Origin: Bryobacterales bacterium
GTDB taxonomy: Bacteria; Acidobacteriota; Terriglobia; Bryobacterales; UBA6623
Direction: 5' to 3'
DNA: 64,000 nucleotides
NCBI GenBank assembly: GCA_965204095.1
Contig: OZ241991.1
Coordinates: 806,105-870,104, forward strand
Position numbers and translations under genes: made by a program. Below, piece by piece: positions 1,308 through 52,821 of this stretch. Under the pieces are notes generated by a model. The model saw only the letters and a list, made by a program, of their open reading frames with translations, was not told where the DNA came from and ran no database searches. How positions within the stretch are numbered: position 1 is the first letter of the stretch; each line of letters begins with the position of its first letter.

Positions 1308-1608
1308 TTAAGCGTCACTTCCGCTCGGCTGTGCGATGAGCGCGGCGCCGCGTTCCTGGAACGGCCGGACGTTACGCCATTGGCTCCGGGGTGCCTAACC
1401 TGCTTTTCTCACCACGTGGCGGGGCGAAGTGCGTGAGAGGGTCGTCAGGACGAGGCGCGCGCCGCTTGGCGCGCGCAGGCGTACTTGACAGTACGTCGAG
1501 CACGGCAAGCAAGCGCAACGAAGTCATGGCGGTCGTATCGCGTGCTTCGACCGTCGGGTGGTGAGAAATGCAGGCTAACGCCGCCCGAGTGACTTTTGCC
1601 ACGGGCTG
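1308..1608 (+). repeat. tandem partial duplication of the Rep-2 right arm, interrupted by Rep-1 copy A
   Basis: 1308-1394 repeats 1192-1278 and 1579-1608 repeats 1279-1307. Rep-1 lies between the two pieces. Confidence 0.8.
1395..1578 (+). mobile_element. Rep-1 MITE-like element, copy A (176-bp core 1399-1574 plus CTAA direct duplications)
   Basis: Ends CCTGCTTTTCTCACCAC ... GTGGTGAGAAATGCAGG. CTAA is present at 1395-1398 and 1575-1578. The paralogous position in the neighbouring Rep-2 copy is uninterrupted. Confidence 0.85.
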
Positions 1609-2665: not shown

Positions 2666-2850
2666 TTAACCTGCATTTCTCACCACATGGCGAGGCGAAG
2701 TGGGTGAGAGGGCTGTCAGGACTAGGCGCGAGACTCTTGGCGCGCGCAGGCGTACTTGAACAGTACGTTGAGCACGGCAAGCAAGCGCAACGAAGTCCTG
2801 GCGGTCGTATCGCGTGCTTCGACCGTCGGGTGGTGAGAAATGCAGGTTAA
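2666..2850 (+). mobile_element. Rep-1 element, copy B (177-bp core 2670-2846, TTAA both sides)
   Basis: Full-length match to copies C and E. The track ATG at 2840 lies inside this element. Confidence 0.85.
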
Positions 2851-2872: not shown

Positions 2873-3655
2873 GTGAGAAGCGTTCTGACGGCTTTACTCG
2901 CCTTCGGGTTCGCTTTGCTGTTGCCCGCGCAAGAAGGCGATGTCGAGAACCCCTACACTTCCGCCGAGGACATTGCCGCCGGGAGCCGCATATTTCGTTC
3001 TCATTGCGCCGTGTGCCACGCGATCGATGGCTCAGGCGGCCGGGGCTCGGACTTGACATCCGGTACATTCCGTCACGGATCCAGCACGGAGGCGATCTAC
3101 GAGAACATCGGGGAGGGCATACCGGGAACCGAAATGCCGGCCACCTTCTTTCGCGGCAAACAATTGTGGCAGTTGGTGGCGTACGTGCGCTCGCTGAGCG
3201 AGGCCCCCCAGAGCGTGGCCGGCCTCGGCGACGCCTCCAGGGGACAGACTCTACTCGAGGGCAAGGGCGGTTGCCGCAACTGTCACCAAGTCAACGGGGA
3301 AGGAGCCCGGTCGGGACCTGAACTGACCTACATCGGCGGACAGCGCTCGGCGGCCGATCTGAGGGCGTCGCTGCTGCGTCCCAACGAACGCGTGCTCCCC
3401 AAAGACTACCGGGTGAGCGCCGTCACGAAGAACGGACAAAAGGTCAGCGGCAGGCGGCTCAACGAAGACAGCTTTTCGATTCAGTTGATCGACACGAACG
3501 AAAATCTCGTCTCTTTGTCGAAGCAGGACGTTTCCGACTTCAGCATCGACAAGACTTCATCGATGCCGGCGATGGGCGGGATGTTCAGCGAGCAGGAAAT
3601 GGAAGACCTGCTGGCCTATCTTGTAACGCTGCAGCGGAAAGGGGATCTGCAATGA
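2873..3655 (+). CDS. dihaem c-type cytochrome (two CXXCH motifs), probable electron acceptor of the downstream PQQ dehydrogenase
   Basis: Motifs CAVCH and CRNCH. Signal peptide VRSVLTALLAFGFALLLPAQ. GTG 2873 is preceded by GAGGTG (GTG 2864 also possible). The stop overlaps the next start (ATGA at 3652-3655). Confidence 0.8.
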   Translation: MRSVLTALLAFGFALLLPAQEGDVENPYTSAEDIAAGSRIFRSHCAVCHAIDGSGGRGSDLTSGTFRHGSSTEAIYENIGEGIPGTEMPATFFRGKQLWQLVAYVRSLSEAPQSVAGLGDASRGQTLLEGKGGCRNCHQVNGEGARSGPELTYIGGQRSAADLRASLLRPNERVLPKDYRVSAVTKNGQKVSGRRLNEDSFSIQLIDTNENLVSLSKQDVSDFSIDKTSSMPAMGGMFSEQEMEDLLAYLVTLQRKGDLQ

Positions 3656-5262
3656 ACACGCTCCGAATGGCGCTTCTTTCGGTGCTCGGCGCATCGCTTC
3701 TTGCCGCTCAGGTGAGCTACGAACGCATTCTCGACGCCGACAAGGAGCCTGGCAACTGGCTGACCTATTCGCGCACCTACGACAGTCAACACTACAGCCC
3801 GCTCGATCAGATCGACAAGAGCAATGTCAACGACCTGGAGTTGAAATGGGTGTTCCAGGCAGACGAAACGACGAAGTTCCAATCGACCCCGTTGGTCGTC
3901 GACGGCATTCTCTACCTCACCCACTCGCCCAACGACATCGCCGCCATTGACGCTGTTACCGGCCGTGTGTTCTGGCGATATCGCCACACGATCCCCGAAG
4001 GCATCAGTGTTTGCTGCGGGCTGGTCAACCGCGGGCTCGCCATTCTGGGAGATAGCCTTTTCATGGCGACTATCGACGGGCGCTTGATGTCTTTCGACGC
4101 CAAGACCGGCTCGATTCGCTGGGATGTGAAGGTCGTCGACAACAAGGACGGCTACGCACTCACGGTTTCGCCGTTGGTCGTCAAGGACAAGGTGGTCATC
4201 GGCACCGCCGGGGGCGAATACGGCATTCGTGGCTTCGTTGACGCCTACGACGCGAAGACGGGCAAGCATGCCTGGCGCTTCTGGACGATCCCCGGGCCGG
4301 GAGAGCCCTATCACGAGACATGGGAAGGCGATTCCTGGAAACGCGGCGGGGGGTCCGTATGGGTCACCGGCTCCTATGACCCCGAACTCGATCTGATGTA
4401 TTGGGGCACCGGCAATCCCGCCCCCGATTGGAATGCCGACGTCCGGCCCGGCGACAACCTCTACACGGACTCCGTCATTGCTCTCGACCCCGATACCGGC
4501 AAACTCGAATGGCACTTCCAGTTCACGCCGCACGACTGGTGGGACTGGGATTCGGTGCAAATTCCCGTGCTCGTCGACATGGAGTTCGAGGGCAGACAGC
4601 GCAAGGTCATCCTATGGGGCAATCGCAACGCCTTCTTCTACGTGCTCGATCGAGCAACGGGTGAATTCCTTCTCGGCAAGCCCTTCGCCTATCAGACCTG
4701 GGCGGTCGGTCTGGACGAATCCGGACGGCCGATCGTTCGCGACGGCATGCAACCCACCCCCGAAGGCACGAAAGTCTACCCCAGCGTTCAGGGCGCGACG
4801 AACTGGTACGCTCCCACCTGGCACCCGCGGACGAAACTGTTCTACTTGTCTGTCTGGGACCGCTATCCCAGCATCTACCACAAAGGAGATGCCACCTATG
4901 TTCGCGGGACGCGTTATCCGGGCAGTTTCCCCGAGGGGATCTATCCCGATATCGTCAAGGACGAGGAGATCGGCTTCGGCGCCATCCGCGCCATCGAACC
5001 CGCCACGGGCGAGCGCAAATGGGAGTTCAGGCTGACCGGCGTTTCCGAAAGCGGCTTGCTCTCGACCGCCGGTGACTTGATCTTCTCCGGCAGCAAGGAA
5101 GGTCACTTCCTGGCCGTGGATGTGGACGAAGGCAAGTTACAGTGGCGCATCAGCCTGGGCAGCCGCATGGCCAACTCGCCGATCACCTACCTGGCCGGCG
5201 GCAAGCAATTGATCTCCGTCGCTTCGGGCTTCGGCCTCTTCACGTTCGGACTCCGCGAGTAG
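3652..5262 (+). CDS. PQQ-dependent alcohol (methanol/ethanol family) dehydrogenase, no fused cytochrome domain
   Basis: NWLTYSRTYDSQHYSPL, STPLVVDGILY, vicinal-cysteine motif SVCCGLVNRG, GGSVWVTGSYDPELDLMYWGTGNPAPDWN. Signal peptide present. Confidence 0.9.
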   Translation: MNTLRMALLSVLGASLLAAQVSYERILDADKEPGNWLTYSRTYDSQHYSPLDQIDKSNVNDLELKWVFQADETTKFQSTPLVVDGILYLTHSPNDIAAIDAVTGRVFWRYRHTIPEGISVCCGLVNRGLAILGDSLFMATIDGRLMSFDAKTGSIRWDVKVVDNKDGYALTVSPLVVKDKVVIGTAGGEYGIRGFVDAYDAKTGKHAWRFWTIPGPGEPYHETWEGDSWKRGGGSVWVTGSYDPELDLMYWGTGNPAPDWNADVRPGDNLYTDSVIALDPDTGKLEWHFQFTPHDWWDWDSVQIPVLVDMEFEGRQRKVILWGNRNAFFYVLDRATGEFLLGKPFAYQTWAVGLDESGRPIVRDGMQPTPEGTKVYPSVQGATNWYAPTWHPRTKLFYLSVWDRYPSIYHKGDATYVRGTRYPGSFPEGIYPDIVKDEEIGFGAIRAIEPATGERKWEFRLTGVSESGLLSTAGDLIFSGSKEGHFLAVDVDEGKLQWRISLGSRMANSPITYLAGGKQLISVASGFGLFTFGLRE

Positions 5263-5266
5263 GGAG

Positions 5267-5451
5267 TTAACCTGCCTTTCTCCCCACGTGGCGAGGCGAA
5301 GTGGGTGAGAGGGCCGTCAGGACGAGGCGCGAGCCGCTTGGCGCGCGCAGGCGTACTTGAACAGTACGTTGAGCACGGCAAGCAAACGCAACGAAGTCCT
5401 GGCGGTCGTATCGCGTGCTTCGACCGTCGGGTGGTGAGAAATGCAGGTTAA
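5267..5451 (+). mobile_element. Rep-1 element, copy C (177-bp core 5271-5447, TTAA both sides)
   Basis: Starts 5 nt after the PQQ-ADH stop. The track start 5415 of the next ORF lies inside it. Confidence 0.85.
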
Positions 5452-6683: not shown

Positions 6684-6916
6684 AACGGCCTAGTGAGGGC
6701 GCCGCGTACGGGATCTGTCGAACGATAGCCCGACAGTACGGCATCAGCCCGTCTACGGTGCAATGGCCAGGGGTTGCTCTCGGCGAGGGCCTAATCGTGG
6801 GCGCACCCGGCATATCGATCGGACGCCCGTCGAGATGGGTGTCCCGTGACATTCCGCCGACGGGACGATTCGGAGGCAGGACTTGAGGTTTCGGCTACAT
6901 CCTGGCCGCCGCTCTC

Positions 6917-7393
6917 TCATTCCTCCACGCGCTCGATCCGAAGCGCTTGCGTTCCCTGGGTTCGGATACGGCCGCAGGCTTGGGCAAAGTCGACCCAGTC
7001 GTACTTCCAGTCTCCGGGAATGCGCGCGAACAGATTCCCGAAGCTGGGCACGCCTTCGGCTCCACGCAAGGTGACGCCGCGGCCGAAGGCCAGCAGGATC
7101 TCGGCGACAGGCCGGCCGTCGCTGGTGACAGGCGATCCCGAGTCCGCCCAGTAGAGAATCTCTCCAGGCAGCGGAAGCTGGGTCCGTTTTTCTTCCGGCG
7201 CCGGCTGATACTTGTCGAGCAGCACAAACGCCTCCATCCCCGAGTAGCGCCCGTGGATGAGGTCATGTTGGATGGGCAACATGTCCCAGACAAGCCGGCA
7301 CGTGCGGGGAGCCTCGTCATCGAGCAGTTCGGCCTCGACCGATTCACCCGTTTCGACAAAGGTCAAACGTATATGGCGTCTTGACGATGGCAT
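6917..7393 (-). CDS. small cytoplasmic protein, tentatively DUF3830 / cyclophilin-like
   Basis: ATG 7393 is preceded by AAGGAGAA. Begins MPSSRRHIRLTFVETGESVEAELLDDEAPRTCRLVWDMLP. The upstream 75 codons of the track ORF have no coding character. Confidence 0.6.
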   Translation of the reverse strand: MPSSRRHIRLTFVETGESVEAELLDDEAPRTCRLVWDMLPIQHDLIHGRYSGMEAFVLLDKYQPAPEEKRTQLPLPGEILYWADSGSPVTSDGRPVAEILLAFGRGVTLRGAEGVPSFGNLFARIPGDWKYDWVDFAQACGRIRTQGTQALRIERVEE

Positions 7394-7761
7394 GAAGTTC
7401 TCCTTCCCCTCTTGGAGCTGGAATTGCTGAAGACGGCTATTCGGAATGTAATTGTAGGCTCTCCTGCCATCTCGAGCCCCCCAAATACGATTGATTTGTA
7501 GAACGGTGAGTCCACAGCGGATCTTCGAACGTCTCGACGGAGGCGACGATCTGGAAATGCGATCTTCCTGCCCTCGATTCCGGTTACCCGTTTCTCGTGT
7601 TACGCCATCGTTCCTCAAGGCGCGGTCATCGGCAACTGCCTCGCGTTCATGAAATCGGCTGCCGTACCGGAAACGTCTTCCGAATCCGCCTCTGTGTGAT
7701 CATACCTGCAAACGGGCGATCACCTCCTCCGCCCGGCGTTCCAAGCTACAATCGTCTCGCT

Positions 7762-8477: not shown

Positions 8478-8746
8478 CTAGTCTGCCTTTCACACCACGC
8501 GGCGAGGCGAAGTGCGTGAGAGGGCCGCCAGGACCAGGCGTAAGCCGGGCGGAGGAAAAAGCGCGAGCCGGGCGAAGAAAAAAGGCGCGCGCAGGCGTAC
8601 TTTACGGTTCAGCGGCCGTCAAACATTTCTTCTGGAGCAAACCGAGCCCCCTGACTAAGGTTTTCACGAATCACGAGACACGAGACACGAATCACGGCCT
8701 TTTTTTCGCGTGCTTCGGCTGTCGGGTGGTGAGCAATGCAGGCTAG
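8478..8746 (+). mobile_element. Rep-1 element, copy D, rearranged (CTAG both sides; centre replaced by other repeat modules)
   Basis: The left arm and the last 40 nt of the right arm are recognisable. The interior carries an internal duplication plus an S-like module and a heptamer array. Confidence 0.7.
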
Positions 8747-8839: not shown

Positions 8840-9093
8840 CCTGCCCCGGCCTGCTAGGCCTGAGCACAGGGAGTCGGCGAGGCGCAGTCCGTGCGGGTCG
8901 CGAATCAGGGCTTCCCAGGCGTTCACCAGCCGCAAGCCACTGATTGTAAGGTCTTTACGGAACACGAATCACAAGACACGAGTCACGGCCGTTATGTTTT
9001 TCACGAATCACGAGACCCGAAACACGAATCACGGCTTTTGGGTTTTTCACGAATCACGAGACTCGAAACACGGTTTTTTTGGTACCTGTTGGT

Positions 9094-9117
9094 ACTGAAG
9101 CCCTTCAGTCTTTTTTT
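9094..9117 (+). terminator. second copy of the hairpin + T7 module
   Basis: actgaa gccc ttcagt c ttttttt, the same module as 8815-8839. Confidence 0.3.
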
Positions 9118-9890
9118 CGGTCGGGGGACGGTTTAGGTTGAAAGTGATGACGCCGTTGTTGGGAACAAAACCCCCATCCGCGCCCGTCGGGGACAAGTCG
9201 GGTGGGGAGAGAAGAGCCGCCCGAGCCGCGGCCTTTCAGGTTTTCACGAAACATGAGACCCGAGACCCGAGACACGGCGATAGCCTGGCGCGCGGCGCAA
9301 GCCAGCGCGAATTCCGAGGTTTTCACGAAACACGAATCACGAGACACGAATCACGAGACACGAATCACGGTTTTTTTTGCATGGGTGGCGCCACCGGAAA
9401 CCGCCGTCCGGACCACTGCGTCCGCCGGCAAGTCACTGTTTCCCGGTTCATCATTGTTCACGATTGTTCGCCATTGTTCGGCAAAAAATATTGTTGGGAG
9501 CCAGTGTCTCCGCGCCGCCCGGACGGCCGTTCCCGCCGCACGGTCACTGCTTTCCTGCGCGCTGTGGGGCGGCTATGACGCGGCATGGGCGGCGTATTGC
9601 TCCCGAGCCGGTGTCCGCGCGCCGTCCGCCGTTCTCGCTCAGACTCACGACGCGCTCCGTTCGCTGGGAATCCCGGAAAAGTGTACAAAATCCCGCTTCC
9701 TACAGGAAAATGCGCCAATCGCATCGCGCCGCAGATCTTGTCGCAACCCGGGCCGCTACCGCTGTGGTGAACGCAACATGAACCCTTATGGCGTTGACAC
9801 TCTCTCTGCCGCACTTTGCGCCTGCCCGAGGAAACAAGCTAGGCTGAGAAACATTCGCAACACTCGCTTCCCTTTTCCAGGAGGAACTCC

Positions 9891-11537
9891 ATGTCGATTC
9901 TCAAAGCGCTCCGTCGCACGAATCCCAGCGGCCTCAGCCGCCGCGAACTCTTCCGCAACGGCGGCCTGCTGGCGGCCGCCGGCCTCGCGCCTGCCGCTGT
10001 GTCCTCTGCTTCCGCCGCTCCCGCGATGAGCTTCGGCTCGGACATGTATCAGTCCATCGGCGTTCGTCCGGTCATCAACGCCAAGGGCACGTTCACGGTG
10101 ATGAGCGGCTCGCTGATGTTGCCCGAATGCCGTCAGGCCATGCAGGAGGCATCGCAGAACTTCGTCCAAATGGACGAGCTGATGGCAGGCGTCGGCAAGC
10201 GCATCGCCGAGATCACCGGCGCAGAATCCGCCATCGTCTCTTCGGGCTGCGCCGCGGCTCTCGTGCATGCCACGTCCGCCTGCATCGCGGGCGGCAACCC
10301 CGAGCGCATTGCCCGGCTGCCCGATCTGGAAGGCCTGAAGAGCGAAATCATCGCTCCGTCCTGGTCGCGCAACACCTACGACCACGCTGTCCGCATGCTG
10401 GGGATCAAGTTCATCGAAGTCGAAAACGAGCAGGAGATGCGCCGCGCCATCGGCGCCAAGACGGCGATGGTCATGGTGCTCGCTACGACTCGTGACAAGG
10501 GGCCGTTCGGACTCAAGGAGATCGCATCGGTAGCTCACGAGCACGACGTGCCGGTCCTGGTGGACGCGGCCGCGGAGGACCTGACCATCCCCAACGTGCA
10601 TCTCGAACGAGGGGCTGATCTTGTCGCCTATTCGGGCGGCAAGGCGTTACGGGGACCGCAGAGCGCCGGCCTGCTGATCGGGCGCAAGGACCTGATCGCC
10701 GCCGCTTGGCTCAACAGCGCGCCGCATCACGCCTTCGGACGCCCGATGAAAGTCGGCAAGGAAGACGCCATGGGTATGCTGGCCGCTGTCGAGATGTGGG
10801 TCAAGCGTGACCACGAGGCCGAGTGGAAGACCTGGGAAAGCTGGCTCGCCGAGATTGCCAACAGCGTCGAGCGCGTGTCGGGAGTGACCACCGAGGTCTC
10901 CCAGCCTCGGGGCTTGTCGAATCGCTCGCCTCGCCTCAGCGTGAAGTGGGACGGAGACAGGATCGGCATTTTCGGCGACGAGGTCGAGAAGCTCCTCTTC
11001 AAGGGGGATCCCCGCATCGTGCTTGCCGGCAGCCGCGGTCGACGGCGCAGGGGCGGTGAGACGTCGGTGACGATCATGCCGTGGCAGATGCAGCCCGGTA
11101 ACGCGAAAGTCATCGCCGCCGAACTGCACCGCGTGCTCTCCAAACCTCCCGAAATGGGCTCGAAGGGATCGCCGGGCGGACCCAACGTCGATGTCGCGGG
11201 CCAGTGGGATCTGCACGTCGACTACGTGCTGGGCAGCGCCGACAACGGGCTCTTCCTCGAGCAGTCGGGCGACGACCTCCACGGAACCCACGTCGGGGAG
11301 GCCACCGCGGCCGACATCCGCGGCTGGGTGGAAGGCAACCAGGTCCACTTCATGGCTCGACATCGCTACGAAGGTTCCGGCTTCGGCTTCACCTTTTCCG
11401 GACAGTTGAACGGAGACAGCATGGAAGGTGAGGTCGATCTCGGCGAATACTCACCCTACGGTCCCGCCAAGTGGTCCGCCAAGCGGCATGAGTACGGCCG
11501 GCCCGGCCCGGTGTTTCGGCCGCAAAAAAACGTCTAG
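9891..11537 (+). CDS. Tat-signal SelA-like (fold-type I, class V-like) PLP-dependent enzyme with a C-terminal beta-rich extension, paralog 1
   Basis: Twin-arginine motif SRRELFRNGGLLAAAGLA. AYSGGKALRGPQSAGLLIG resembles the SelA PLP-lysine loop. AGGAGG lies upstream of the ATG. Clearly homologous along its length to 31614..33227. Confidence 0.8.
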   Translation: MSILKALRRTNPSGLSRRELFRNGGLLAAAGLAPAAVSSASAAPAMSFGSDMYQSIGVRPVINAKGTFTVMSGSLMLPECRQAMQEASQNFVQMDELMAGVGKRIAEITGAESAIVSSGCAAALVHATSACIAGGNPERIARLPDLEGLKSEIIAPSWSRNTYDHAVRMLGIKFIEVENEQEMRRAIGAKTAMVMVLATTRDKGPFGLKEIASVAHEHDVPVLVDAAAEDLTIPNVHLERGADLVAYSGGKALRGPQSAGLLIGRKDLIAAAWLNSAPHHAFGRPMKVGKEDAMGMLAAVEMWVKRDHEAEWKTWESWLAEIANSVERVSGVTTEVSQPRGLSNRSPRLSVKWDGDRIGIFGDEVEKLLFKGDPRIVLAGSRGRRRRGGETSVTIMPWQMQPGNAKVIAAELHRVLSKPPEMGSKGSPGGPNVDVAGQWDLHVDYVLGSADNGLFLEQSGDDLHGTHVGEATAADIRGWVEGNQVHFMARHRYEGSGFGFTFSGQLNGDSMEGEVDLGEYSPYGPAKWSAKRHEYGRPGPVFRPQKNV

Positions 11538-31613: not shown

Positions 31614-33227
31614 ATGCCAAAAACATCGTCGATCAAAGACCGTGCCCGGCTGAGCCGCCGGGACATCTTCCGGGGAGGAGGCCTTGCCGCTTCGGGTTTG
31701 CTGGCTGGGACGGCCTCGATGTCCGCCGCCGCAATGCCTGTGTCGCCCAGCGTCTACACGCGGGTCGGCGTCAAACCCTTCATCAACCTGACGGCGGCCG
31801 TCACGATCAACGGCGGCATGCTGACGTTGCCCAACGTGAAGCAAGCGATGGAGGAAGCATCCTACTTTTCCGTCAACCTGGACGAGCTGATGGAAGGCGT
31901 CGGCAAGCGCCTCGCTGAGATTTTCCAATGCGAGGCGGCCCTTGTCACGTCCGGCGCGGCAGGGTCATTGACGCATGCCACCTCGGCTTGCCTCGCCGGG
32001 GGCGATCCCGAACGGATTCAGCAGTTGCCTGATCTGACGGGGCTCCGCACGCAGGTCATCATGCCCCGCGAGTCGCGCAATACGTATGACCATGCGATTC
32101 GAGCCCTCGGCGTGAAGATGATCACCGTCGACACCCGCGAGGAATTTTACCGCGCACTGAGCCGCAACACCGCGATGATTTCCGTGCTCGGCAACGCGGA
32201 ATCGCGGGGGCCGATCCGCCTCGAGGAGTTCGTCGAAGCCGGACACAAGTACGGAGCGCCGGTGGTCGTCGATGCTTCGCCGGAGTGGCCGCAGTCGCCG
32301 GACCCCTACCTGGAGCGCGGCGCTGACCTCGTCGCCTATTCGGGCGGCAAGATCTGCGCCGGCCCACAGTGCAGCGGATTCTTGATTGGCCGCAAAGACC
32401 TCATCCACGCCGCTTGGATGAACAGTTCGCCTCATCACGCTTTCGGCCGCATGATGAAGGTCGGCAAGGAAGAGATCATGGGCGCGTTGGTGGCTGCCGA
32501 GTTCACCTTGAGCCGGCGCAACGTCGAGCACGAACTCGACAAGTGGAACGGCTGGATCAGGCGGATTGACGCCAAGCTCAAGAAGGTTCCCGGGGTGCGG
32601 ACGAAGCACAACCCGCCGCCGGGCAAGAATCCGCATCCCGTTCTCGAGATCGCCTGGGACCCCGAGCGCATCGGCTACACCGCTGGAGAGGTCCACGATG
32701 TCCTGATGGGCAGCGAGCCTCGGGTTCAGACTCACGCGGGGGGCGAGGGCCACAGTTTCGCCATTCGGGTCGGTAACTGCCGCGAGGACCAGATCGATGT
32801 GGTGGCGGACCGCCTCGCGGAGGTCTTCCGCAGTGCGCCCACGCCGAAACCAGAACGCAACATGCCTCCGGCAGCGGATGTCTCCGGCCGTTGGGATGTG
32901 GAGATCAGCTTTGTCCGCGGCTCAGCCCGTCATAGCCTGTACTTCGATGCCGAAGGCGGTCATCTGCGCGGAACGCACATCGGACAACGCGGACAAGGCG
33001 AGCTGGCCGGCTCCATCAATGGCAACCACGTCCGCTTCCGCAGTCGATTGACGTACGACGCCGAGCGCAGCAGTTATCTGTTCGACGGCGAGCTGAAGGG
33101 CGACGAGATTGCCGGCGCTCTCGATCTCGGCGAATACGGCAAGGCCACCTTCAAGGCGTGGCGTCACGCATACGGAAAACCGCGCCGCAAAGACCCTTCC
33201 GTTTCCGGGAAAACAGAGAAAATATAA
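31614..33227 (+). CDS. Tat-signal SelA-like PLP-dependent enzyme, paralog 2
   Basis: SRRDIFRGGGLAASGLLAG; AYSGGKICAGPQCSGFLIG. Same domain order and same C-terminal extension as 9891..11537. Confidence 0.8.
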   Translation: MPKTSSIKDRARLSRRDIFRGGGLAASGLLAGTASMSAAAMPVSPSVYTRVGVKPFINLTAAVTINGGMLTLPNVKQAMEEASYFSVNLDELMEGVGKRLAEIFQCEAALVTSGAAGSLTHATSACLAGGDPERIQQLPDLTGLRTQVIMPRESRNTYDHAIRALGVKMITVDTREEFYRALSRNTAMISVLGNAESRGPIRLEEFVEAGHKYGAPVVVDASPEWPQSPDPYLERGADLVAYSGGKICAGPQCSGFLIGRKDLIHAAWMNSSPHHAFGRMMKVGKEEIMGALVAAEFTLSRRNVEHELDKWNGWIRRIDAKLKKVPGVRTKHNPPPGKNPHPVLEIAWDPERIGYTAGEVHDVLMGSEPRVQTHAGGEGHSFAIRVGNCREDQIDVVADRLAEVFRSAPTPKPERNMPPAADVSGRWDVEISFVRGSARHSLYFDAEGGHLRGTHIGQRGQGELAGSINGNHVRFRSRLTYDAERSSYLFDGELKGDEIAGALDLGEYGKATFKAWRHAYGKPRRKDPSVSGKTEKI

Positions 33228-33321: not shown

Positions 33322-35043
33322 TCAGCGTCTCTGTGACGGTTCCTGGCGAACCGGCCGACGTGAAGGTCCGGATTCCCGGACCTCGGTCCTGCGATCGCAT
33401 TCGATATCCGTCAGGGTTTGAACCGCGCCATGGGGCCAGATGACCTCGAGTTTGCGGATAGACGTCTCTTCCCCAAGGCCGAAGTGGACCCGGATATCGC
33501 TCGCTGAAAGATAGCTGCCCACCGAACCCACAAACGACTCCTGCACGCGGCCCGAGCCGGTCTCGATGCGGATGCGGGCTCCACGGCCTTCGTAACCGCC
33601 TTGCGCCGCGATCAACTGAACGCTGAGCCAATGGTTCGAGGACTCCGTAATATTTTTCAGGACCGCGGCCCGCTCGTTGTTGGCGTTGACGACGATGTCC
33701 ATTCTTCCGTCGTTGTCGAGATCGCCAAACGCGGCGCCGCGTCCCGCAGCCGGTTTGCGGAACGCAGAGCCGGCGTTCTTCGATATATCGAAGAACCGCC
33801 CGAATACGTTCTTCAGCATCAGGAAAGGCTCACGGAAGGCGAGCGCGGGATCGGACCACTCGATGTCATCCATGACGTGGCCTTGTGCAACGAACAGATC
33901 CCGCCAACCATCGTTGTCGAAGTCGACGAGTCCCGCTCCCCAGCCGGAATGCATATCGGTCAGCGGACCCAGCCCGCTTGATCTCGCTGCGCTCCGGAAC
34001 TCTCCGCCACGGTTGCGAAACAGCCAGTAGCTCTGGCGTGCGAGGGCGTTGACGAAGATGTCAGGCTGTCCATCGTTGTCATAGTCGGCGAATGCGACGC
34101 CCATTCCCGCGAAGTCGCGGCCGTCGGCGTCATAGGCAACCCCGGCAGCCACGCCGACCTCCTCGAAGCGCTTGCCGTCGAGGTTGCGGAAGAGCTGTTG
34201 CGGGTATGCATCGTTTGCAACGAAGATGTCGACCCAGCCGTCGCGGTCGTAGTCGCCGAGGGCCACGCCGAGGCCCTTGCCGGGGTAAGCACTGATACCG
34301 GTGGTGCGAGAGACATCCTCGAACTTTCCTTGGCCGGTGTTTCGGAAAAGCAGGTGTTCGATGGGCGCGAAACGTCGCGGATGGCAGTAGGAGCGCCGAT
34401 CGGGAAGGCCGTTGCCGCACGGAATGTTCCTGGAAACGTCCCAGTCCAGGTAGCGCGCCACGAAGAGGTCGAGGTGGCCGTCGCGGTCGTAGTCGACGAA
34501 GGCGGCGCCCGACGACCATCCCCTCCCCCCTACTCCGGCTTCCGCAGTCACGTCAGTGAACGAGCCGGCGCCGTCGTTTTCCAGCAGGATGTTGCGGCCG
34601 AAGTTCGTGACGTACAGGTCGGGGTCGCCGTCGTTGTCGTAGTCTCCGACAGCCGCGCCCATGCCGTAGCCCCGGCCCGCTGCGCTGGCGGCTTCGGTGA
34701 CGTCCTTGAAGCGCCAGTCTCCGAGGTTGCGATAGAGCCGGTTCCAGTAGGCAGGGTCGGTCTTGTCGGGCTCCGTCCCAGCAGGCATGGGGGCATCGAG
34801 CGCGGCTCCGTTCACGAGATAGATATCGAGCAGTCCGTCGCCGTCGTAGTCGAGGAGAGCCACACCCGAGCCCATCGTCTCGATCAGATACTTCTGCGAT
34901 GTTCGTCCGGAACGATGCTTGAAAGAGACGCCGCCCGATTCGGCCACGTCAACAAACCTGGGCGAAACGAGCCCCGGTTGCGCCTGAAGCAGGAGAGTGA
35001 CTCCAAGCACGCCGGCGATCAGTACCGTCCGCAGGATGGGCAT
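33322..35043 (-). CDS. FG-GAP/VCBS repeat protein with ASPIC/UnbV C-terminal domain (CRTAC1-like)
   Basis: ATG 35043 gives MPILRTVLIAGVLGVTLLLQAQ (signal). Repeated DYDGDGxxDxxVxN motifs. C-terminus GARIRIETGSGRVQESFVGSVGSYLSASD. The 877-aa track ORF is an upstream artefact overlapping the divergent gene. Confidence 0.9.
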   Translation of the reverse strand: MPILRTVLIAGVLGVTLLLQAQPGLVSPRFVDVAESGGVSFKHRSGRTSQKYLIETMGSGVALLDYDGDGLLDIYLVNGAALDAPMPAGTEPDKTDPAYWNRLYRNLGDWRFKDVTEAASAAGRGYGMGAAVGDYDNDGDPDLYVTNFGRNILLENDGAGSFTDVTAEAGVGGRGWSSGAAFVDYDRDGHLDLFVARYLDWDVSRNIPCGNGLPDRRSYCHPRRFAPIEHLLFRNTGQGKFEDVSRTTGISAYPGKGLGVALGDYDRDGWVDIFVANDAYPQQLFRNLDGKRFEEVGVAAGVAYDADGRDFAGMGVAFADYDNDGQPDIFVNALARQSYWLFRNRGGEFRSAARSSGLGPLTDMHSGWGAGLVDFDNDGWRDLFVAQGHVMDDIEWSDPALAFREPFLMLKNVFGRFFDISKNAGSAFRKPAAGRGAAFGDLDNDGRMDIVVNANNERAAVLKNITESSNHWLSVQLIAAQGGYEGRGARIRIETGSGRVQESFVGSVGSYLSASDIRVHFGLGEETSIRKLEVIWPHGAVQTLTDIECDRRTEVRESGPSRRPVRQEPSQRR

Positions 35044-35184
35044 CACGATCAAAACCCACCTTAGCGGCAACGAGCAGTGCTGACAATCGCCGGGGCGACG
35101 CTGGCGCCGCGATCGACTTCGCACATTGACGCGAAAAGGATTCGACGCCGTCATGAAGATGATGGATAATAAGGTCCACGGCAA

Positions 35185-37095
35185 ATGATCGACACGCTTC
35201 GAGCAATCGCCTGTCTGTTGCTCGCCTGTGGAATGACGAGCGGGCAGCAGTTGTCTCCCCAGGCACGCGAGCGCATGGAGCGTGCGCACCAGATTCCTCA
35301 GAGAGCGCCGGCTTCGGAAGTTGCCCAGGAACTGACCCAGCAGGCAGCGGAGGTGCGACCGGGCGGCGCGGCAGTGAAGACGCCGGTCGAACGGCGGAAC
35401 TTCATCGACGAGCATATCTTCGGCCGGATCGAGCGCGACGGCATCCCTCACGCCGGGCCGGCGTCGGATCGTGAGTTTGCGCGGCGTGCCTATCTGGATG
35501 CGACGGGCCGCATCCCGCCGGTCGATGAGTTGCTGGCCTTCCTCGAGGATACCGACCCCGAGAAGCGTGACAAGCTGGTGGATCGGCTGGTCGATAGCGA
35601 AGAGTTCATCGAACGCTGGTCCTACTACTTCGAGGACCTCTTCCGGGCGGGCAACCGCATGGGGTTCGGCAAGAATCTCTTTCACTATTGGATCGTGGAA
35701 TGGCTGCTTCTCGACCGCTCGTACGCCGATGTGGCGACGGACCTGTTGACCCAGGGTGGGAAGAGCAGCCATTCGTCGCCGGGCGCGCTGTATTTCGCGC
35801 GCGATTTCGTCAAGGCCAAAGACGATCCGGAAGAGCCGGACGCGCTCGATCTGGTGAACCGCGCCGACGCGATCGACGAATTCACGATCACTTACAGCAA
35901 GGTGCTGCTCGGCATGAATCCGGGTTGCATCTCCTGCCACGATGGAGCGGGGCATCTCGAGAAAGTGAATGTGTTCTTCTCACGCAAAACGCGCGAGGAG
36001 TTCTTTCAGCAGGCGTCTTTCTTCGGCAGGACGCGGATGGTGATGAACTGGGAGAACGGCTTCCAGGCAAATACCGAATACACGGTAGATGATGTCGAGC
36101 CCGGGTATCCGACCAGCGGCGAGAGTATCGTTCGCGTCCCGCGGACGGGCGGGTCGAACGAGCCGCGATTCATCCTGACGGGTGAGGCGGCGCGGCCCGA
36201 AGCCATGCCCCGGGACGAGTTGGCTCGGCTGCTGACGGGGCATATCCAGTTTTCACGAGCCATCACGAATCGCATCTGGGCGGAGTTGATGGGGTTCGGC
36301 ATTGTCGAGCCGCTGGACGACTTCGACCTGGCGCGGTACTACCCGGACCAGGAGCTGCCCGAAGGCTGGTCGATGCAGCCCTCGAACCCGCAATTGCTGG
36401 ATGCGATGGCGCGAGATTTTCAGGCGCACGATTACAGCTTCAAGCACCTGGTGCGGACGATTATGAAGTCCAATGCCTACCGGCTCTCTTCGAAGTTCGA
36501 CGGTGAATGGAAACCCGGATATGCGAACTACTATCCGCGGAAGTTCGTGCGCATGTTGAGCGCGGCGGAACTGCACGACTCGATTGTCACGGCGACGGCG
36601 CGGCCAGGGTCCTATAAGAGCGGAGTGGATGATGTCGCCACGGCGATGGCGTTGCTGGACCCGGCGCACGTGAATCGCGAGGTGAAGGAGTTTCTGCGCG
36701 CTTTCGGACAGCAGAGCCGCGACTCACTGCCGGCGAAGACCGCGAGGTCGTCGCTGCAGGCGATGCTGATGATGAATTCGCAGGTTGTGCTCGATCGCGT
36801 GAAGGCGGAAGGCAACAGCCGGGTCGATCAACTGCTCGGACGCCTCGAAGATGACCGTATCGTGATCGAGCAGAGTTTCCGCACGGCGGCTGGACGCGAA
36901 CCCAGCACGGAGGAACGGGAGCGGGTTCTCGACCGCGGCCTGGTGGAGAAGATCTACCTGGCGACGCTGTCGCGGCGCCCGTTGCCGGCGGAGATGGATA
37001 TCGCCCTGAGCGCTTTGCACGAGGACCGCAAGCAGGGGATGGAGAACTTGCAGTGGGCGCTGCTGAACAAACCTGAATTCCTGTTCAACTATTAG
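35185..37095 (+). CDS. DUF1549/DUF1553-type protein (PSD1-like)
   Basis: NFIDEHIFGRIERDGIPHAGPASDREFARRAYLDATGRIPP, DKLVDRLVDSEEFIERWSYYFEDLFR. C-terminus LQWALLNKPEFLFNY. Confidence 0.8.
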   Translation: MIDTLRAIACLLLACGMTSGQQLSPQARERMERAHQIPQRAPASEVAQELTQQAAEVRPGGAAVKTPVERRNFIDEHIFGRIERDGIPHAGPASDREFARRAYLDATGRIPPVDELLAFLEDTDPEKRDKLVDRLVDSEEFIERWSYYFEDLFRAGNRMGFGKNLFHYWIVEWLLLDRSYADVATDLLTQGGKSSHSSPGALYFARDFVKAKDDPEEPDALDLVNRADAIDEFTITYSKVLLGMNPGCISCHDGAGHLEKVNVFFSRKTREEFFQQASFFGRTRMVMNWENGFQANTEYTVDDVEPGYPTSGESIVRVPRTGGSNEPRFILTGEAARPEAMPRDELARLLTGHIQFSRAITNRIWAELMGFGIVEPLDDFDLARYYPDQELPEGWSMQPSNPQLLDAMARDFQAHDYSFKHLVRTIMKSNAYRLSSKFDGEWKPGYANYYPRKFVRMLSAAELHDSIVTATARPGSYKSGVDDVATAMALLDPAHVNREVKEFLRAFGQQSRDSLPAKTARSSLQAMLMMNSQVVLDRVKAEGNSRVDQLLGRLEDDRIVIEQSFRTAAGREPSTEERERVLDRGLVEKIYLATLSRRPLPAEMDIALSALHEDRKQGMENLQWALLNKPEFLFNY

Positions 37096-42719: not shown

Positions 42720-44657
42720 TTATTCCCGCAGTAGCCGCAGAGCTTCCAGCAGGCCGCTACGGTCGGTGTCCTCGTCCGGTTCTGAGTCCTCTTCCGAGTC
42801 GCCCTCGCCCGGCGCCAGGAAGAGGTTCTGCTCGAGCCCATGCTGGCGCATGTACAACTCGTGGTAAAGGCCCCCCTGTGCGAGCAGCTCGTCGTGCCGG
42901 CCGCGTTCGACGATGCGGCCTTCGTCGATCACGAGAATCTGATCCGCCCGGCGAATCGTCGAGAGCCTGTGAGCAATCACGAAGGTCGTTCGGCCTCGCA
43001 TCAGGTACGACAGCCCCTCTTGGATCATCGCTTCCGATTCGGAATCGAGGCTTGACGTGGCTTCGTCCAGAATGAGGATTCGCGGGTCGGCCAGGATCGC
43101 CCGTGCGATCGACACCCGCTGCCGTTGGCCGCCGGAAAGCTTGACGCCGCGCTCGCCGACAATCGTTTCGTACCTGTCCTCGAACACTTCCGCGAATTCA
43201 TCCACACGGGCGATGCGGCCGGCGGCGATGATCTCCTCCTCGCTCGCCTCCGGTCGGGAGAAAGCGATGTTTTCGCGGATCGTGCCGTCAAACAGGAACG
43301 TGTCCTGCAAGACGACCCCAAGCTGTGAGCGATAGGACGCCAGGCGCGTGGTTGAGAGGTCCGCGCCGTCGACGGTGATGGCTCCCGACGACGGTTTGTA
43401 GAACGCGGCCACCAGGCCGATGAGCGTTGACTTGCCGGAACCCGAGGGGCCGACCAGAGCCGTGACCGTGCCGGGGTTGGCCTCGAACGATACCTCGTGG
43501 AGAACGGATTTGCCCTCTTCGTACGCGAACGAAACGTTGTCGAAGCGAACTTCTCCGCGGATTTTCCCGATGTCCGCGGTTCGATCCGGATCTTTGTCTT
43601 CGGGACGCTCGTTGAGGACCTCGCGGGTGCGCTCGAGTCCGGCGAGCGCTTCGGTCACCTGCGTTCCGATGTTGACCATCTGGTACAACGGCGAAACCAG
43701 GAACGCCACGAAGGCCGTAAAGGTGACGAAGCTGCCCAGAGTCATCGTCCCGGCGAAGATTTGCTGAGTGCCCACGTACATCACGACCGCGCCCACCAAG
43801 CCGAGCAGCAATACCGCCGAGAGACTGACGAGCGCAGTGCTCGTCATGGTCTTGAGAATGTTCTCGAGCAGCCGCTGAACACCGCGCGAGAACACCGCGG
43901 CCTCCCGTTCCTCGGCGTGGTAGCCCTTCACAACTCTCACGCCGCTCAGTGATTCCGAGAGACGCCCGGTCACTTCAGCGCGGATTCTTCCCCGCTCCCG
44001 GAAGATCGGCCGGATATGCTTGAACGCATACCAGAAAACGGTCACGAAACAGATCACGATCGTCAACGCCATGCCGGCCAACAGCGGGCTGATCCAGAAA
44101 AGCACTCCCAGCGCGATCACGGCCGTCAGCAGCCCACCCACCAGCTCGACCAGTCCGGTGCCTACCAGGTTTCGAACACCCTCGACATCGCTCATGATGC
44201 GGGAGATCAGAGACCCTGTCTTGGTCATGTCGTAGTAAGCGACCGGCAGCCGCCCGACGTGCTCCTGGACCTGGCGCCGGAGGTCGGCGATCATTCGCTG
44301 AGCTGCTTTCGAAAGCAGTTGAGTCAGTGAGAACGCCGTAGCGCCCTGCACCGCTGTCGCGGCCAGGACAGCCAGGACGAGCGGAATGAGCAGCTCTTCT
44401 CTTCCCTGCCCGATGACATCGTCGATCAGAAACTTCGTCGATGCCGGGAGCACCATGCTTGCCGCGCGGCTGATGGCGATCAATACGAGGCCCACGGCCA
44501 TGGCTCTGCGGCGCGGTTTTACCAGCGCCCAAACCTCGGCGGCAAGCGACTTGGCGCGCTCCTTGGTGAACGGTTTCCTGGCAGCTTCGCCGCCGGGCCG
44601 GGTCTTTCCGCCGCTCGCGCGTTCATAGCGCCCTAGAGATGTGCCGTGTGATCTCAT
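42720..44657 (-). CDS. ABC exporter, fused permease/ATPase (MsbA-like type I exporter)
   Basis: Six-TM N-terminal half; Walker A GPSGSGKST; signature LSGGQRQRVSIARAIL; Walker B ILILDEATS. Confidence 0.9.
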   Translation of the reverse strand: MRSHGTSLGRYERASGGKTRPGGEAARKPFTKERAKSLAAEVWALVKPRRRAMAVGLVLIAISRAASMVLPASTKFLIDDVIGQGREELLIPLVLAVLAATAVQGATAFSLTQLLSKAAQRMIADLRRQVQEHVGRLPVAYYDMTKTGSLISRIMSDVEGVRNLVGTGLVELVGGLLTAVIALGVLFWISPLLAGMALTIVICFVTVFWYAFKHIRPIFRERGRIRAEVTGRLSESLSGVRVVKGYHAEEREAAVFSRGVQRLLENILKTMTSTALVSLSAVLLLGLVGAVVMYVGTQQIFAGTMTLGSFVTFTAFVAFLVSPLYQMVNIGTQVTEALAGLERTREVLNERPEDKDPDRTADIGKIRGEVRFDNVSFAYEEGKSVLHEVSFEANPGTVTALVGPSGSGKSTLIGLVAAFYKPSSGAITVDGADLSTTRLASYRSQLGVVLQDTFLFDGTIRENIAFSRPEASEEEIIAAGRIARVDEFAEVFEDRYETIVGERGVKLSGGQRQRVSIARAILADPRILILDEATSSLDSESEAMIQEGLSYLMRGRTTFVIAHRLSTIRRADQILVIDEGRIVERGRHDELLAQGGLYHELYMRQHGLEQNLFLAPGEGDSEEDSEPDEDTDRSGLLEALRLLRE

Positions 44658-44887
44658 CGCATTCGTGCAGGCACTCCATTCTCGCAGGCGGACGCTCGAT
44701 AGTGAGCCCTCATCAGCGCGTCATCTTGCGATTCGGCAACCCGTCAAGGCGTCCAGCCGATATCCAGGCAGGTCATGCCGCTGTGCTCCCGAGGCCCCGC
44801 AGGGATCGAAGCCTGGAGTACATCAGTCCCGTGCAAAGCCAACCGCACCCCGCCGGTCCCAGTTCAATGCACCTGCGGCACGGCTAG

Positions 44888-45147
44888 CAGCCCGTGGTAA
44901 AAGTCCCGTGGAGGGCGCGGCGGGCTCCTGCGGTCGTTCGGCGCGGAGTGAGGAGGATGGCGATCCGGGTGATCTCCTCCGACGAACGACAAAGCCGACG
45001 ACTGCAAATGTCCGTCGCCCGAAGGGTTACGCGCCACTCCCGCTCCGCTGCGCGGAGAGCGAGGCTCCACGTTCCTGGAACGGCCAAGCGTTATGCTATC
45101 GCCCCCGGGGCGCGTGACGCCGGCCGCGTGACTTTTGCCACGGGCTG
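44888..45147 (+). repeat. Rep-2 element, copy b
   Basis: Aligns end to end with 1049..1307. Inverted ends cagcccgtggtaaaagtc / gacttttgccacgggctg. Flanks CTAG and TTAG. Confidence 0.85.
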
Positions 45148-46560: not shown

Positions 46561-46594
46561 TGATCCAGAACCCGATGCCCCAGCCGGGTTCCAT

Positions 46595-47556: not shown

Positions 47557-47571
47557 TCTTACGCGGCGGCG

Positions 47572-50806: not shown

Positions 50807-51172
50807 CTAGCCTGCATGCCTTACCACGTGGCGAGGCAAAGTGAGTGCTTCCGACCTCGGATCAAGAATCCATGAATCGCAAAACACGGCCTTTACGATT
50901 CACCGGCCCTCAGACATTCCTTTCGAGAGCGAACTAGCCTGCATTTCTCACCACGTGGCGAGGCGAAGTGCGTGAGAGGGGCGTCAGGACGAGGCGCGAG
51001 CCGCTTGGCGCGCGCAGGCGTACTTGAACCGTACGTTGAGCACGGCAAGCAAGCGCAACGAAGTCCTGGCGGTCGTATCGCGTGCTTCGGCCGTCGGGTG
51101 GTGAGACATGCAGGCTAGGCCGCCACCAATGGTTTTCACTAAAAACTAACCACTAACAACTAACCACTGCCT
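50807..51172 (+). repeat. Rep-3 composite repeat, copy 1 (stub + heptamers + S module + T module) carrying nested Rep-1 copy E
   Basis: Modules: ctagcctgcatgcc... (Rep-1-like left stub), degenerate heptamers, cacggcctttacgattcaccggccctcagacattcctttcgagagcgaa (S), [Rep-1 E], gccgccaccaatggttttcactaaaaactaaccactaacaactaaccac (T). Confidence 0.8.
50934..51118 (+). mobile_element. Rep-1 element, copy E (177-bp core 50938-51114, CTAG both sides)
   Basis: Best-preserved copy, with 20 of 21 terminal positions pairing between the two ends. Inserted between the S and T modules of Rep-3. Confidence 0.9.
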
Positions 51173-51772
51173 TTACGTTTTCCCCCGGTGCAAACCCAGC
51201 GCCATGCGGCCCAGCCGCATCAGGTGAGCGTGAACCGCATAGCCGAGGAGATAGACAAACACGAACGGAAAGACGATAAACCGGACCAGGGTGCGCGGAG
51301 CGGATTTATCGAGCAGGCCCGCCCGATGCATGCAGAGGCGGGCCAGATTGCCAAAATTGCCGCGGTCGAGCCAGAAGAAGTCGGCGTTCTCGTTTGCGAT
51401 GAGGAACTTCGCCGGGATGAGCAGCAAGCTCGCCGCGCGCCAGCGAGCCATGATGGGCCCGCCCGCATACAGCACCACGGCGATGCCGTGCCGGCGGTTG
51501 CGGACCTCATGCAGCAGACGCCAGCGGGCGTGGTCGTCGGTGTATTCGGTGACACGCCAGACCTGACGTTTCGTGTCCGGCGCGAGTTGCAAAGGCAGAC
51601 CCGGCCAGCAAGTAAGCAGGTCGATAACGACGTTCTCGCCGAAGGCCCTCTTCAAGTGTGGGATCAGCTTTTCCGTAACGTCGCGCTTGCCGCTCTCGAC
51701 GAGCAGAATGCGTTCCGTCTCCGGAACGCGTCGGCTGAGAACCCAGCGCATCCCGCTCATTCTATTCCGCAT
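51173..51772 (-). CDS. hypothetical membrane-associated protein
   Basis: ERILLVESGKRDVTEKLIPHLKRAFGENVVIDLLTC (Rossmann-like start) and a C-terminal TM helix LVRFIVFPFVFVYLLGYAV. The track start 51772 lies in Rep-1 F; ATG 51760 or 51751 are alternatives. Confidence 0.55.
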   Translation of the reverse strand: MRNRMSGMRWVLSRRVPETERILLVESGKRDVTEKLIPHLKRAFGENVVIDLLTCWPGLPLQLAPDTKRQVWRVTEYTDDHARWRLLHEVRNRRHGIAVVLYAGGPIMARWRAASLLLIPAKFLIANENADFFWLDRGNFGNLARLCMHRAGLLDKSAPRTLVRFIVFPFVFVYLLGYAVHAHLMRLGRMALGLHRGKT

Positions 51773-51945
51773 GTCTCGCTACGTGACGAGGCGAAGTGCG
51801 TCATAGGGCCGTCAGGACGAGCCGCGAGCCGCTGGGCGCGCGCAGGCGTACTTGACAGTACGTTGAGCACGGCAAGCAAGCGCAACGAAGTCCTGGCGGT
51901 CTTATCGTGTGCTTCGACCGTCGGGTGGTGAGAAATGCAGGTTAG
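51765..51945 (+). mobile_element. Rep-1 element, copy F (left end degenerate, right end ...gcagg TTAG)
   Basis: Interior and right arm match copies B/C/E. The left terminal repeat has decayed (ccgcatgtctcgctacgtg). Confidence 0.75.
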
Positions 51946-52167: not shown

Positions 52168-52608
52168 ATGGCAAAGTTTTTCACATTGCAGGAAGCCGAG
52201 GACTGCATTCCAGGACTGGAGGACTTGCTGCGGACCGCCATCGACTCCAAGAAGGGGGCGGCTCAGATGGAACGCGAGCTCCAGGCGATCGGCGAGCGCA
52301 TCCATCTGCTCGGCGGTGCCGAGATCAACCCCGTCAAGGTCGCGGAAAAAAGGGCTATGCAGCGCGTTTGCATGCAACGCCTCAAGTCTTCGATAGAGAG
52401 CATCGAGCAAACGGGCTGCCTGGTGAAGGACCTCGAAATGGGCTTGCTGGATTTCCCGGCTCAGCTCGAGGGCGACGAAGTATACCTCTGCTGGAAGCTG
52501 GGCGAACCCCGCATCCAGTTCTGGCATCGCCCCGAGGAGGGCTTTGCCGGGCGCAAACGCATCGGTTCGCAGTTCGGTGAATCCCGCGGCCCTTCAAGAA
52601 CTCATTAG
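52168..52608 (+). CDS. DUF2203-like small protein
   Basis: MAKFFTLQEAEDCIPGLEDLL..., TGCLVKDLEMGLLDFPAQLEGDEVYLCWKLGEPRIQFWH. ATG 52168. The stop TAG is the TTAG at the start of Rep-3 copy 2. Confidence 0.65.
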   Translation: MAKFFTLQEAEDCIPGLEDLLRTAIDSKKGAAQMERELQAIGERIHLLGGAEINPVKVAEKRAMQRVCMQRLKSSIESIEQTGCLVKDLEMGLLDFPAQLEGDEVYLCWKLGEPRIQFWHRPEEGFAGRKRIGSQFGESRGPSRTH

Positions 52609-52821
52609 CCTGCACTATGCAGCACGCGCCAAGGCGAAGCGCCTGCCGGCAGGACGAGCCGCGAGACGCTCGAAGCGCTCCGGCCCCGTGTCCCGAATCA
52701 CGAGACACGAAACACCGGGCTGTTAAGGTTCACCGGCCGTCAGACATTTCTTTCGAGAGCGAACCAGGTCGCCACCAATGGTTTTCACTAAAAACTAACC
52801 ACTAACAACTAACCACGGCCT
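52605..52821 (+). repeat. Rep-3 composite repeat, copy 2 (fills the whole convergent intergenic spacer)
   Basis: Degenerate Rep-1-like left arm, heptamers (gaatcacgagacacgaaacacc), then S and T modules. Confidence 0.8.

Follow-up and report, generated by a model that had tools for sequence, protein, structure and literature searches.

Rep-1, a palindromic miniature element with YTAR target-site duplications in a Bryobacterales lineage of marine sponges, and its probable IS1380-family partner

The window, that is the whole 64-kb stretch of DNA that was analyzed, carries six full copies of a short repeat termed here Rep-1, all in + orientation, as found by nhmmer using a profile built from five of them. 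The copy under study (copy 2, 2666..2850, +) lies between two + strand genes and has a core of 177 nt (2670-2846), perfect 17-nt terminal inverted repeats and TTAA on both sides. Copy 1 (1395..1578, +; core 1399-1574, 176 nt), which scored 198 bits over the full model in the nhmmer search and was also recovered by alignment, is flanked on both sides by CTAA, a tetranucleotide that is not palindromic and yet is directly repeated. Copy 3 (5267..5451, +; core 5271-5447; TTAA/TTAA duplication) begins 8 nt past the stop of a PQQ-dehydrogenase gene (3652-5262), and a long variant with a core of 261 nt (8482-8742), split into two pieces by the profile search, is located at 8478..8746 (+) between CTAG and CTAG. 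The remaining two are copy 5 (50934..51118, +; core 50938-51114; CTAG/CTAG), inserted in another repeat family, and copy 6 (51762..51945, +; core 51766-51941), whose left end has decayed and whose flanks read CTAT/TTAG. Profile search and alignment thus place the six copies where the initial annotation had put them; the five pairs of flanking tetranucleotides that it listed were also recovered, the CTAT/TTAG pair of the sixth copy being absent from its list.

The Rep-1 core measures 176-177 nt and is bounded by a 17-nt end, CCTGCATTTCTCACCAC, which occurs 12 times in the window when up to 3 mismatches are allowed, compared with 0.11 expected; this count was reached by 0 of 100 shuffles of the window. 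The terminal inverted repeats are perfect in several copies and, in a set of 67 copies, they are the most conserved columns of the element. Together with the folding z scores given below, this count bears out the earlier description of terminal inverted repeats, arms that pair along their whole length and a central hairpin. Three left-end stubs had been described as well. Two were detected, both weakly: a truncated left end of ~37 nt at 50807..50847 (+, CTAG flank, nhmmer E 1.5e-4), which abuts the start of a - strand aminotransferase gene and is also found in the related assembly RHO3_bin_12, and a degenerate left arm of ~75 nt at 52605..52683 (+, TTAG flank, nhmmer E 7.8e-4), followed by heptamer repeats. 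The supposed stub at 54136 was unsupported, TAGCCTGC being the only match there.

The copy at 8478..8746 had been called rearranged, and it is indeed altered: the left arm, the core 19-mer and the right arm are retained, a segment of ~36 nt has been added, and the region around positions 90-135 has been swapped for a second repeat with CACGAAT/CACGAGA heptamers. It represents a subfamily and not a one-off rearrangement, because the same variant was found in another genome (block L035, 87% identity over 264 nt, and block L031).

Rep-1 has no transposase gene, its sole ORFs being spurious ones that start in its ends; the ATG at 2840 falls in the right end of copy 2 and a GTG at 5415 lies inside copy 3, as previously pointed out. 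Rep-1 gives rise to false starts and artificially lengthened ORFs; with the element masked, gene calling in uncultured sponge symbionts would improve. Neither an IS1380 nor an IS110 transposase was detected by tblastn in the 64-kb window, which agrees with the earlier observation that no matching transposase is encoded there. No promoter- or terminator-like sites were seen in the Rep-1 copies between 1200 and 9000, and Rfam 15 returned only a tRNA for the whole window at the gathering threshold, the interval 2600-2920 being empty at E up to 1.

Other repeated sequences were noted in the same stretch. A second intergenic family (8597-8703, 8947-9375, 47417-47560, 50878-50937, 51119-51175, 52680-52824 and 54196-54417) consists of a ~60-95-nt core (…TTTACGGTTCACCGGCCGTCAGACATTTCTTTCGAGAGCGAACCAGGCCGCCACCAATGGTTTTCAC…) with arrays of 7-nt units behind it (CACGAAT/CACGAGA or ACTAAAA/ACTAACC); its members frequently lie beside Rep-1 or are nested with it, and the family contains an insertion site common to Rep-1 and to the IS1380-family element described below. 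A third repeat of ~265 nt is present at 1044-1399 and 44883-45150 (91% identical), one of its copies abutting Rep-1 copy 1, and has matches of 85-90% in several blocks of OZ242366.1 and RHO3_bin_12 (L005, L016, L022, L047). The - strand gene 33322-35955 contains at 33686-34866, within a large ORF, 7 diverged direct repeats of ~53 nt spaced by 150-240 nt, and looks like a repeat-domain protein. Finally, ORFs 9891-11537 (548 aa) and 31614-33227 (537 aa) share DNA stretches that are 75-79% identical (10134-10213 with 31842-31921 and 10653-10793 with 32361-32501), and are probably paralogues.

The invariant core 19-mer of Rep-1 matched at least 87 eight-kb blocks of public genomes, nearly all of them, among the matches listed, from Bryobacterales (Acidobacteriota) assemblies, and no match was found in viral contigs. 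Bearers include the 5.97-Mb chromosome OZ242366.1, the sponge-derived bins RHO3_bin_12 and APA_bin_29, and OZ244625.1, among others, and diverged copies are present in more distant Terriglobia. The window and the 87 blocks gave 233 non-overlapping nhmmer hits, 92 of which are unique full copies. The closest comparison is provided by RHO3_bin_12, whose contig JAPPLB010000050.1 is ~95% identical to the window across 43557-51827. The literature searched on IS1380-derived MITEs, Acidobacteria MITEs and transposases of sponge Bryobacterales contained no account of the element or of any MITE derived from IS1380, an absence that is no proof of novelty. One further contig of 2.3 kb, binned within the gammaproteobacterial COS2_bin_9 (JAPOWV010000036.1, L001), carries at 117-2084 three elements in tandem, each sharing a CTAG: a truncated Rep-1, a full Rep-1 that is nested, and an element of the IS1380 family; given this content, it is probably mis-binned and comes from a sponge Bryobacterales genome.

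The flanks of the 92 unique full copies from the window and the 87 genome blocks were then compared. Inside the ends the sequence is almost fully conserved, the four flanking positions (C/T, T, A, G/A) are partly so, and beyond them conservation drops to about zero. The first position of the left flank agrees with the first of the right flank (Fisher p=2e-6), and so does the fourth with the fourth (p=5e-6), whereas the pairing that an inverted repeat would give, left 1 with right 4, shows no association (p=0.78); a weak association of left 4 with right 1 (p=0.005) probably stems from a preference for the palindromic CTAG. Non-palindromic flanks are identical on the two sides in 17 pairs (TTAG/TTAG 9, CTAA/CTAA 4, others 4) and inverted in only 1. 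The flanks are therefore direct 4-bp target-site duplications with the consensus YTAR, as had been proposed. Two other readings of the flanks were ruled out, namely a TA-only duplication in the style of IS630/mariner, since positions 1 and 4 of the tetranucleotide are also directly repeated, and an extension of the inverted repeat, given the ratio of direct to inverted pairs and the missing left-1/right-4 association.

Comparison of the window with the ~95%-identical RHO3_bin_12 block (L051) revealed three insertion differences, each with a 4-nt spacing. The copy at 50934..51118 is missing at the orthologous RHO3_bin_12 site (L051 6794-6936); a Rep-1 copy at L051 3246-3452 corresponds in the window to ACACG-CCAG-GGCCG; and the RHO3_bin_12 orthologue of the copy at 51762 holds a second, nested Rep-1 copy. 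Both orthologous empty sites read CCAG or CGAG instead of YTAR, so that one extra substitution is needed at each. Rep-1 is a mobile MITE that has been active recently and duplicates a 4-bp YTAR target, because conservation ends 4 nt outside the element, the tetranucleotides are directly repeated, and copies are present in one genome and absent from the other, including the nested one. The MITE assignment of the initial annotation is upheld by the agreement of the flanks on both sides and by this polymorphism. Since Rep-1 copies differ between genomes that are 95% identical, they can be used to mark strains, and they probably also cause breaks in assemblies.

A side observation concerns the sequence of the sites themselves. 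Filled sites with CTAG(G) face empty or paralogous sites with CCAG(G) or CGAG, and decayed duplications often read CCAG or CTGG (window ~47168-47176 against L051 3246-3452; L051 7576-7760 against window 51811-51820; window 50934 against its paralogues at 52759 and 54328). This pattern looks like a frequent CTAGG to CCAGG change, which is the change expected from very-short-patch repair.

The predicted stop codon of the upstream gene coincides with the TAR of the duplication in 21 of the 92 copies. Copies hug gene ends because YTAR contains TAA/TAG, and in a GC-rich genome (60-63% GC) many of the tolerated targets are stop codons and intergenic sites; by our own estimate, which was not computed, the 21 overlaps fit roughly with YTAR sites being rare and insertions being tolerated only at intergenic sites and stop codons. 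An insertion at a stop codon regenerates it.

The intergenic location of the copies within operons, together with the strong hairpin covariation and the strand-specific G:U excess presented below, could also be expected if Rep-1 were mainly a structured intergenic RNA or DNA element maintained by the host, such as a regulatory hairpin or a REP, its copies being conserved spacers and not products of transposition. This is very unlikely in view of the direct 4-bp duplications and the loss of flank conservation beyond them, of insertions that differ between 95%-identical genomes and copies nested in copies, and of ends that are those of a transposase-bearing element (see below); as a sole explanation, it is already contradicted. 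REP sequences and BIMEs, moreover, are 20-40-bp palindromes with a GTAG or CGTC head and without target duplication (PMC3733652), and Rep-1 has no Rfam match. Classification of Rep-1 as a RAYT-dependent REP/BIME was rejected on its length of 177 nt, its 4-bp duplication and its lack of a GTAG/CGTC head.

Coding elements having Rep-1-type ends were collected from two sources. Metagenomes were scanned for end sequences that have TAR in front and, behind, sequence not resembling the MITE arms; more than 120 contigs matched, some of them in records labelled as marine-sediment or activated-sludge metagenome. Five of these contigs contained elements of 1734-1781 bp that share the 15-17-nt ends and lie between YTAR tetranucleotides. 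Two of these (L161 and L170) have ORFs of 485 and 486 aa that match the IS1380-family model NF033539 with 376-388 bits (cut-off 180) and PF13701 with E ~1e-150, and the transposases of the other three are 57-62% identical to them over their full length. The left ends of L153, L161, L191 and L200 are identical to the Rep-1 end (17 of 17 positions), and 15-17-nt ends are all that these diverse IS1380-family elements share.

The second source was the Bryobacterales lineage itself. In the sponge-metagenome contig L001 an IS1380-family element, detected by tblastn, directly abuts a Rep-1 copy; it was the only IS1380 transposase found in the 87 sampled 8-kb blocks. Homologues of its transposase with 87-94% identity are encoded in Bryobacterales assemblies, including RHO3_bin_12 (JAPPLB010000144.1), and in all 7 IS copies of 1722-1725 bp were retrieved from Bryobacterales or sponge assemblies; the Bryobacterales transposase has 481 aa. 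One end of this IS, CCTGCATTTCTCACCAG, agrees with the MITE end in 16 of 17 nt, and the other, CCCGGATATCTCACCAG, in only 13 of 17. The flanks of the 7 copies read CTAG/CTAG in five and CTAG/CTAA in one, the last lying at a contig end. Overall, 12 coding elements with Rep-1-type ends were recovered (1.72-1.78 kb; 5 from metagenomes and 7 from Bryobacterales or sponge assemblies). Every one of them encodes a transposase of the IS1380 family, and the 11 with readable flanks are all flanked by YTAR (CTAG/CTAG in 7, mixed YTAR pairs in 4). Other long end pairs in the first 87 blocks were considered as parent IS and rejected, being neighbouring MITEs.

The insertion sites are also shared. The IS copy of RHO3_bin_12 (JAPPLB010000144.1, L208) sits inside a Rep-1 element at the site GGA|CTAG|GCGC, which is used by nested Rep-1 copies as well, and in L212 and L213, which belong to another genome, the IS1380-family element occupies the same site of the second repeat family as the window copy at 50934. 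The element is present in RHO3_bin_12 and four other related assemblies and absent from the 64-kb window; from the 95%-identical relative we infer that the genome to which the window belongs carries it too. Since ends, YTAR duplication and insertion sites are shared with coding elements of the IS1380 family, the sequence comparisons identify this family, and not IS5, as the probable partner of Rep-1.

The initial annotation had attributed the mobilization of Rep-1 to an IS5-group transposase, a reasoning that starts from the 4-bp YTAR duplication of Rep-1, as IS5 insertions carry a conserved duplication of the same kind (PMC10359306). That attribution did not hold up: the same YTAR flanks accompany the coding elements with Rep-1 ends, 12 of 12 of which belong to the IS1380 family, and no IS5-type gene bounded by such ends was present in ~1.4 Mb of retrieved sequence. 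The ends of IS5-group elements begin with GG or GA and those of the IS1380 family with CC, and both Rep-1 and its partner begin with CC. We therefore regard an IS5-group transposase as a highly improbable mover of Rep-1, and a YTAR duplication alone is not diagnostic of IS5.

The mechanism that we favor, with an IS1380-family partner, would be as follows. Both ends of Rep-1 reproduce an end of the 1.72-kb IS1380-family insertion sequence in the same lineage; the IS1380-family DDE transposase, supplied in trans, most likely binds these ends, and it would make a 4-nt staggered cut at YTAR, into which the element is inserted with duplication of the tetranucleotide. IS1380 transposases serve as the prokaryotic outgroup of piggyBac (PMC10813416). 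With Rep-1, a miniature element is connected to this family of bacterial relatives of piggyBac, and its 4-bp target centred on TA is like that of piggyBac.

Rep-1 itself appears to be a target of other mobile elements. In OZ242366.1, a 1.44-kb IS110-family element (NF033542, 335 bits) splits at least 5 different Rep-1 copies at one identical position in the central loop, TTCAA^GTACG, the junction in the MITE centre being …CTGTTCAA^GTACGCC…. Composites of this kind are located in L044 (64-1681), L062 (2511-4128 and 4847-6464), L055 (2231-3838) and L086 (476-2050). The IS110-family element has 11-bp subterminal inverted repeats (GGTTCGCTCCC/GGGAGCGAACC) and its protein is 100% identical in at least 9 places. 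The MITE halves of the composites differ from each other, including indels, while the insert is ~99% identical, indicating that it entered different MITE copies independently; to judge from these junctions, the MITE seems to serve the IS110-family element as a homing site. The 1618-bp units with MITE ends of OZ242366.1 had been considered as a possible MITE parent, and were rejected as they consist of this insert in the MITE loop. A second, different IS110-family element of the same chromosome (L031 6554-7978), with a 318-aa ORF (6772-7728) and a leader of ~200 nt, interrupts a long-variant Rep-1 after position 18 of the arm. The non-coding ends of IS110 elements gave no match in Rfam. The insertions in the Rep-1 loop provide a natural example of an RNA-guided recombinase at a repeated landing pad.

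As RNA, copy 2 is predicted to fold into one long hairpin on either strand, with -110.4 kcal/mol for the + strand (z -10.9) and -83.9 for the - strand (z -7.4). The hairpin is single and of ~85 bp, the arms pair along its whole length, and the central stem-loop GTACTTGAACAGTAC (GTAC-TTGAAC-AGTAC) is present. Metagenome contigs contributed at least 21 sequence clusters of short elements having Rep-1 ends and a YTAR duplication, in which non-palindromic flank pairs are direct in 9 cases and inverted in 0. Many of these elements measure 173-178 nt and form one symmetric hairpin, one strand folding better than the other by 15-30 kcal/mol. When oriented by the better-folding strand they align with Rep-1 over the whole length, conserved islands being the ends, CGTCGCGAGG near 22-31, a central GGCGTAC-TT-GACAGTACGTCGAGCAC and CGCAGCAG near 150, with variable arms between them.

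In an alignment of 17 sequences, which are related and come in some cases from the same cluster, pairing holds for 91.8% of cells, and both sides have changed in 27 of 43 pairs. The covariation score of 0.48 exceeds that of shuffles (0.19, with 0 of 500 reaching it) and of slid controls (0.08-0.13). Counted on one strand of the superfamily alignment, over 25 column pairs, G:U cells outnumber A:C cells by 74 to 12, the orientation there having been picked by folding energy; within the Rep-1 consensus taken by itself the counts are 8 and 3, a difference that is not significant. When orientation was re-drawn from nothing but the asymmetric central core, the Rep-1-sense strand still gave the better fold in 19 of 22 elements. 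For Rep-1 hits with a score of 60 bits or more, the ratio of copies pointing the same way as the tandem genes around them to copies pointing the other way is 26:12 to 32:17 (p 0.03-0.04), counts that rest on a home-made gene caller, and for full copies only the ratio is 20:13 (p=0.30, not significant). Covariation, G:U excess, strand folding and co-orientation together suggest that one strand only is under selection, the simplest candidate being the transcript, and that a transcribed Rep-1 hairpin matters. Such a hairpin would probably affect, for instance, the processing or stability of operon mRNAs, or the tolerance of insertions.

The covariation might instead arise at the level of DNA, through gene conversion from arm to arm or through a need of transposition for symmetrical subterminal sites or a single-stranded DNA hairpin. 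A palindromic MITE is what two copies of a single IS end naturally produce, folding is much stronger than in shuffles for either strand, and the orientation bias relative to genes is weak, all of which would fit. Symmetrical processes, however, predict no strand preference, against the G:U excess and the same-strand folding of 19 of 22 elements; conserved bulges and internal loops persist without being homogenized; and the conserved islands are not needed for transposase binding, given that IS1380-family elements share just their 15-17-nt ends. A single-stranded DNA intermediate of fixed polarity may nevertheless be compatible with a strand preference, and we consider this DNA-level origin possible, although it is not the one that we would choose.

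Returning to selection on the transcript, we hold with good confidence that Rep-1 is a MITE of a Bryobacterales lineage of marine sponges, most likely moved in trans by an IS1380-family transposase, and that its one-strand hairpin probably has an effect; mobilization in trans and any role as RNA are the parts of this explanation that we infer. More tentatively, and with less than even confidence, Rep-1 could be one branch of a cross-habitat superfamily of ~176-nt IS1380-dependent elements, in which the hairpin, internal loops and central stem-loop are kept as a functional RNA by selection on one strand. If this were true, the hairpin would not be a mere by-product of two inverted ends, and the RNA of the MITE could, for example, determine how stable operon mRNAs are by serving as a target of an RNase, or it could regulate the spread of the element itself. 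The strand-specific covariation opens the question of whether a selfish element is being shaped by selection on its RNA.

Among known systems, the partner elements resemble members of the IS1380 family such as ISEcp1, ISPme1, IS1247 and IS1380 in their NF033539/PF13701 transposase, their length of 1.72-1.78 kb with a single ORF of ~480 aa, their ends starting with CC and their short duplications, Rep-1 differing from all of them in having no transposase. Duplications of this family are of 4-5 bp per ISfinder. IS1247 is listed with a 5-bp duplication (PMC3281130). For a strict YTAR target (mostly CTAG), as seen in this clade, we found no report in the IS1380 family. The non-canonical products known from the family, one-ended transposable modules that take neighbouring genes along (PMC9330008), are unlike the miniature hairpin of Rep-1. 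The resemblance to IS5 of E. coli and to IS5-group MITEs is restricted to the target, the 4-bp YTAR duplication, while ends and transposase family differ.

Animal piggyBac and its TTAA-flanked miniature derivatives share with Rep-1 a 4-bp duplication with a central TA, TTAA being one of the YTAR sequences; piggyBac ends begin with CCC. Rep-1 differs in its bacterial host, its broader target, of which CTAG is the commonest form, and a transposase that is only distantly related. Regarding the IS110-family element at the Rep-1 loop, it recalls the IS110/IS1111 members that home to REP sequences or transposon ends; it is a separate element, for which Rep-1 is the landing site.

Closest in form are Correia/NEMIS of Neisseria, ERIC of enterobacteria and RUP of Streptococcus, which like Rep-1 are non-coding elements of 100-200 bp with terminal inverted repeats in intergenic positions, and which are often co-transcribed into long RNA hairpins, the hairpin of Rep-1 being predicted from its sequence. 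The structure of ERIC is reported to be conserved by compensatory changes, and Correia and ERIC transcripts are reported to be processed by RNases; Correia and RUP duplicate TA. Rep-1 differs from Correia, ERIC and RUP in sequence, host phylum and partner family, and it stands above a routine MITE by its piggyBac-like target, a strand-biased hairpin conserved across a broad superfamily and its use, in a relative, as a landing site for an IS110-family element.
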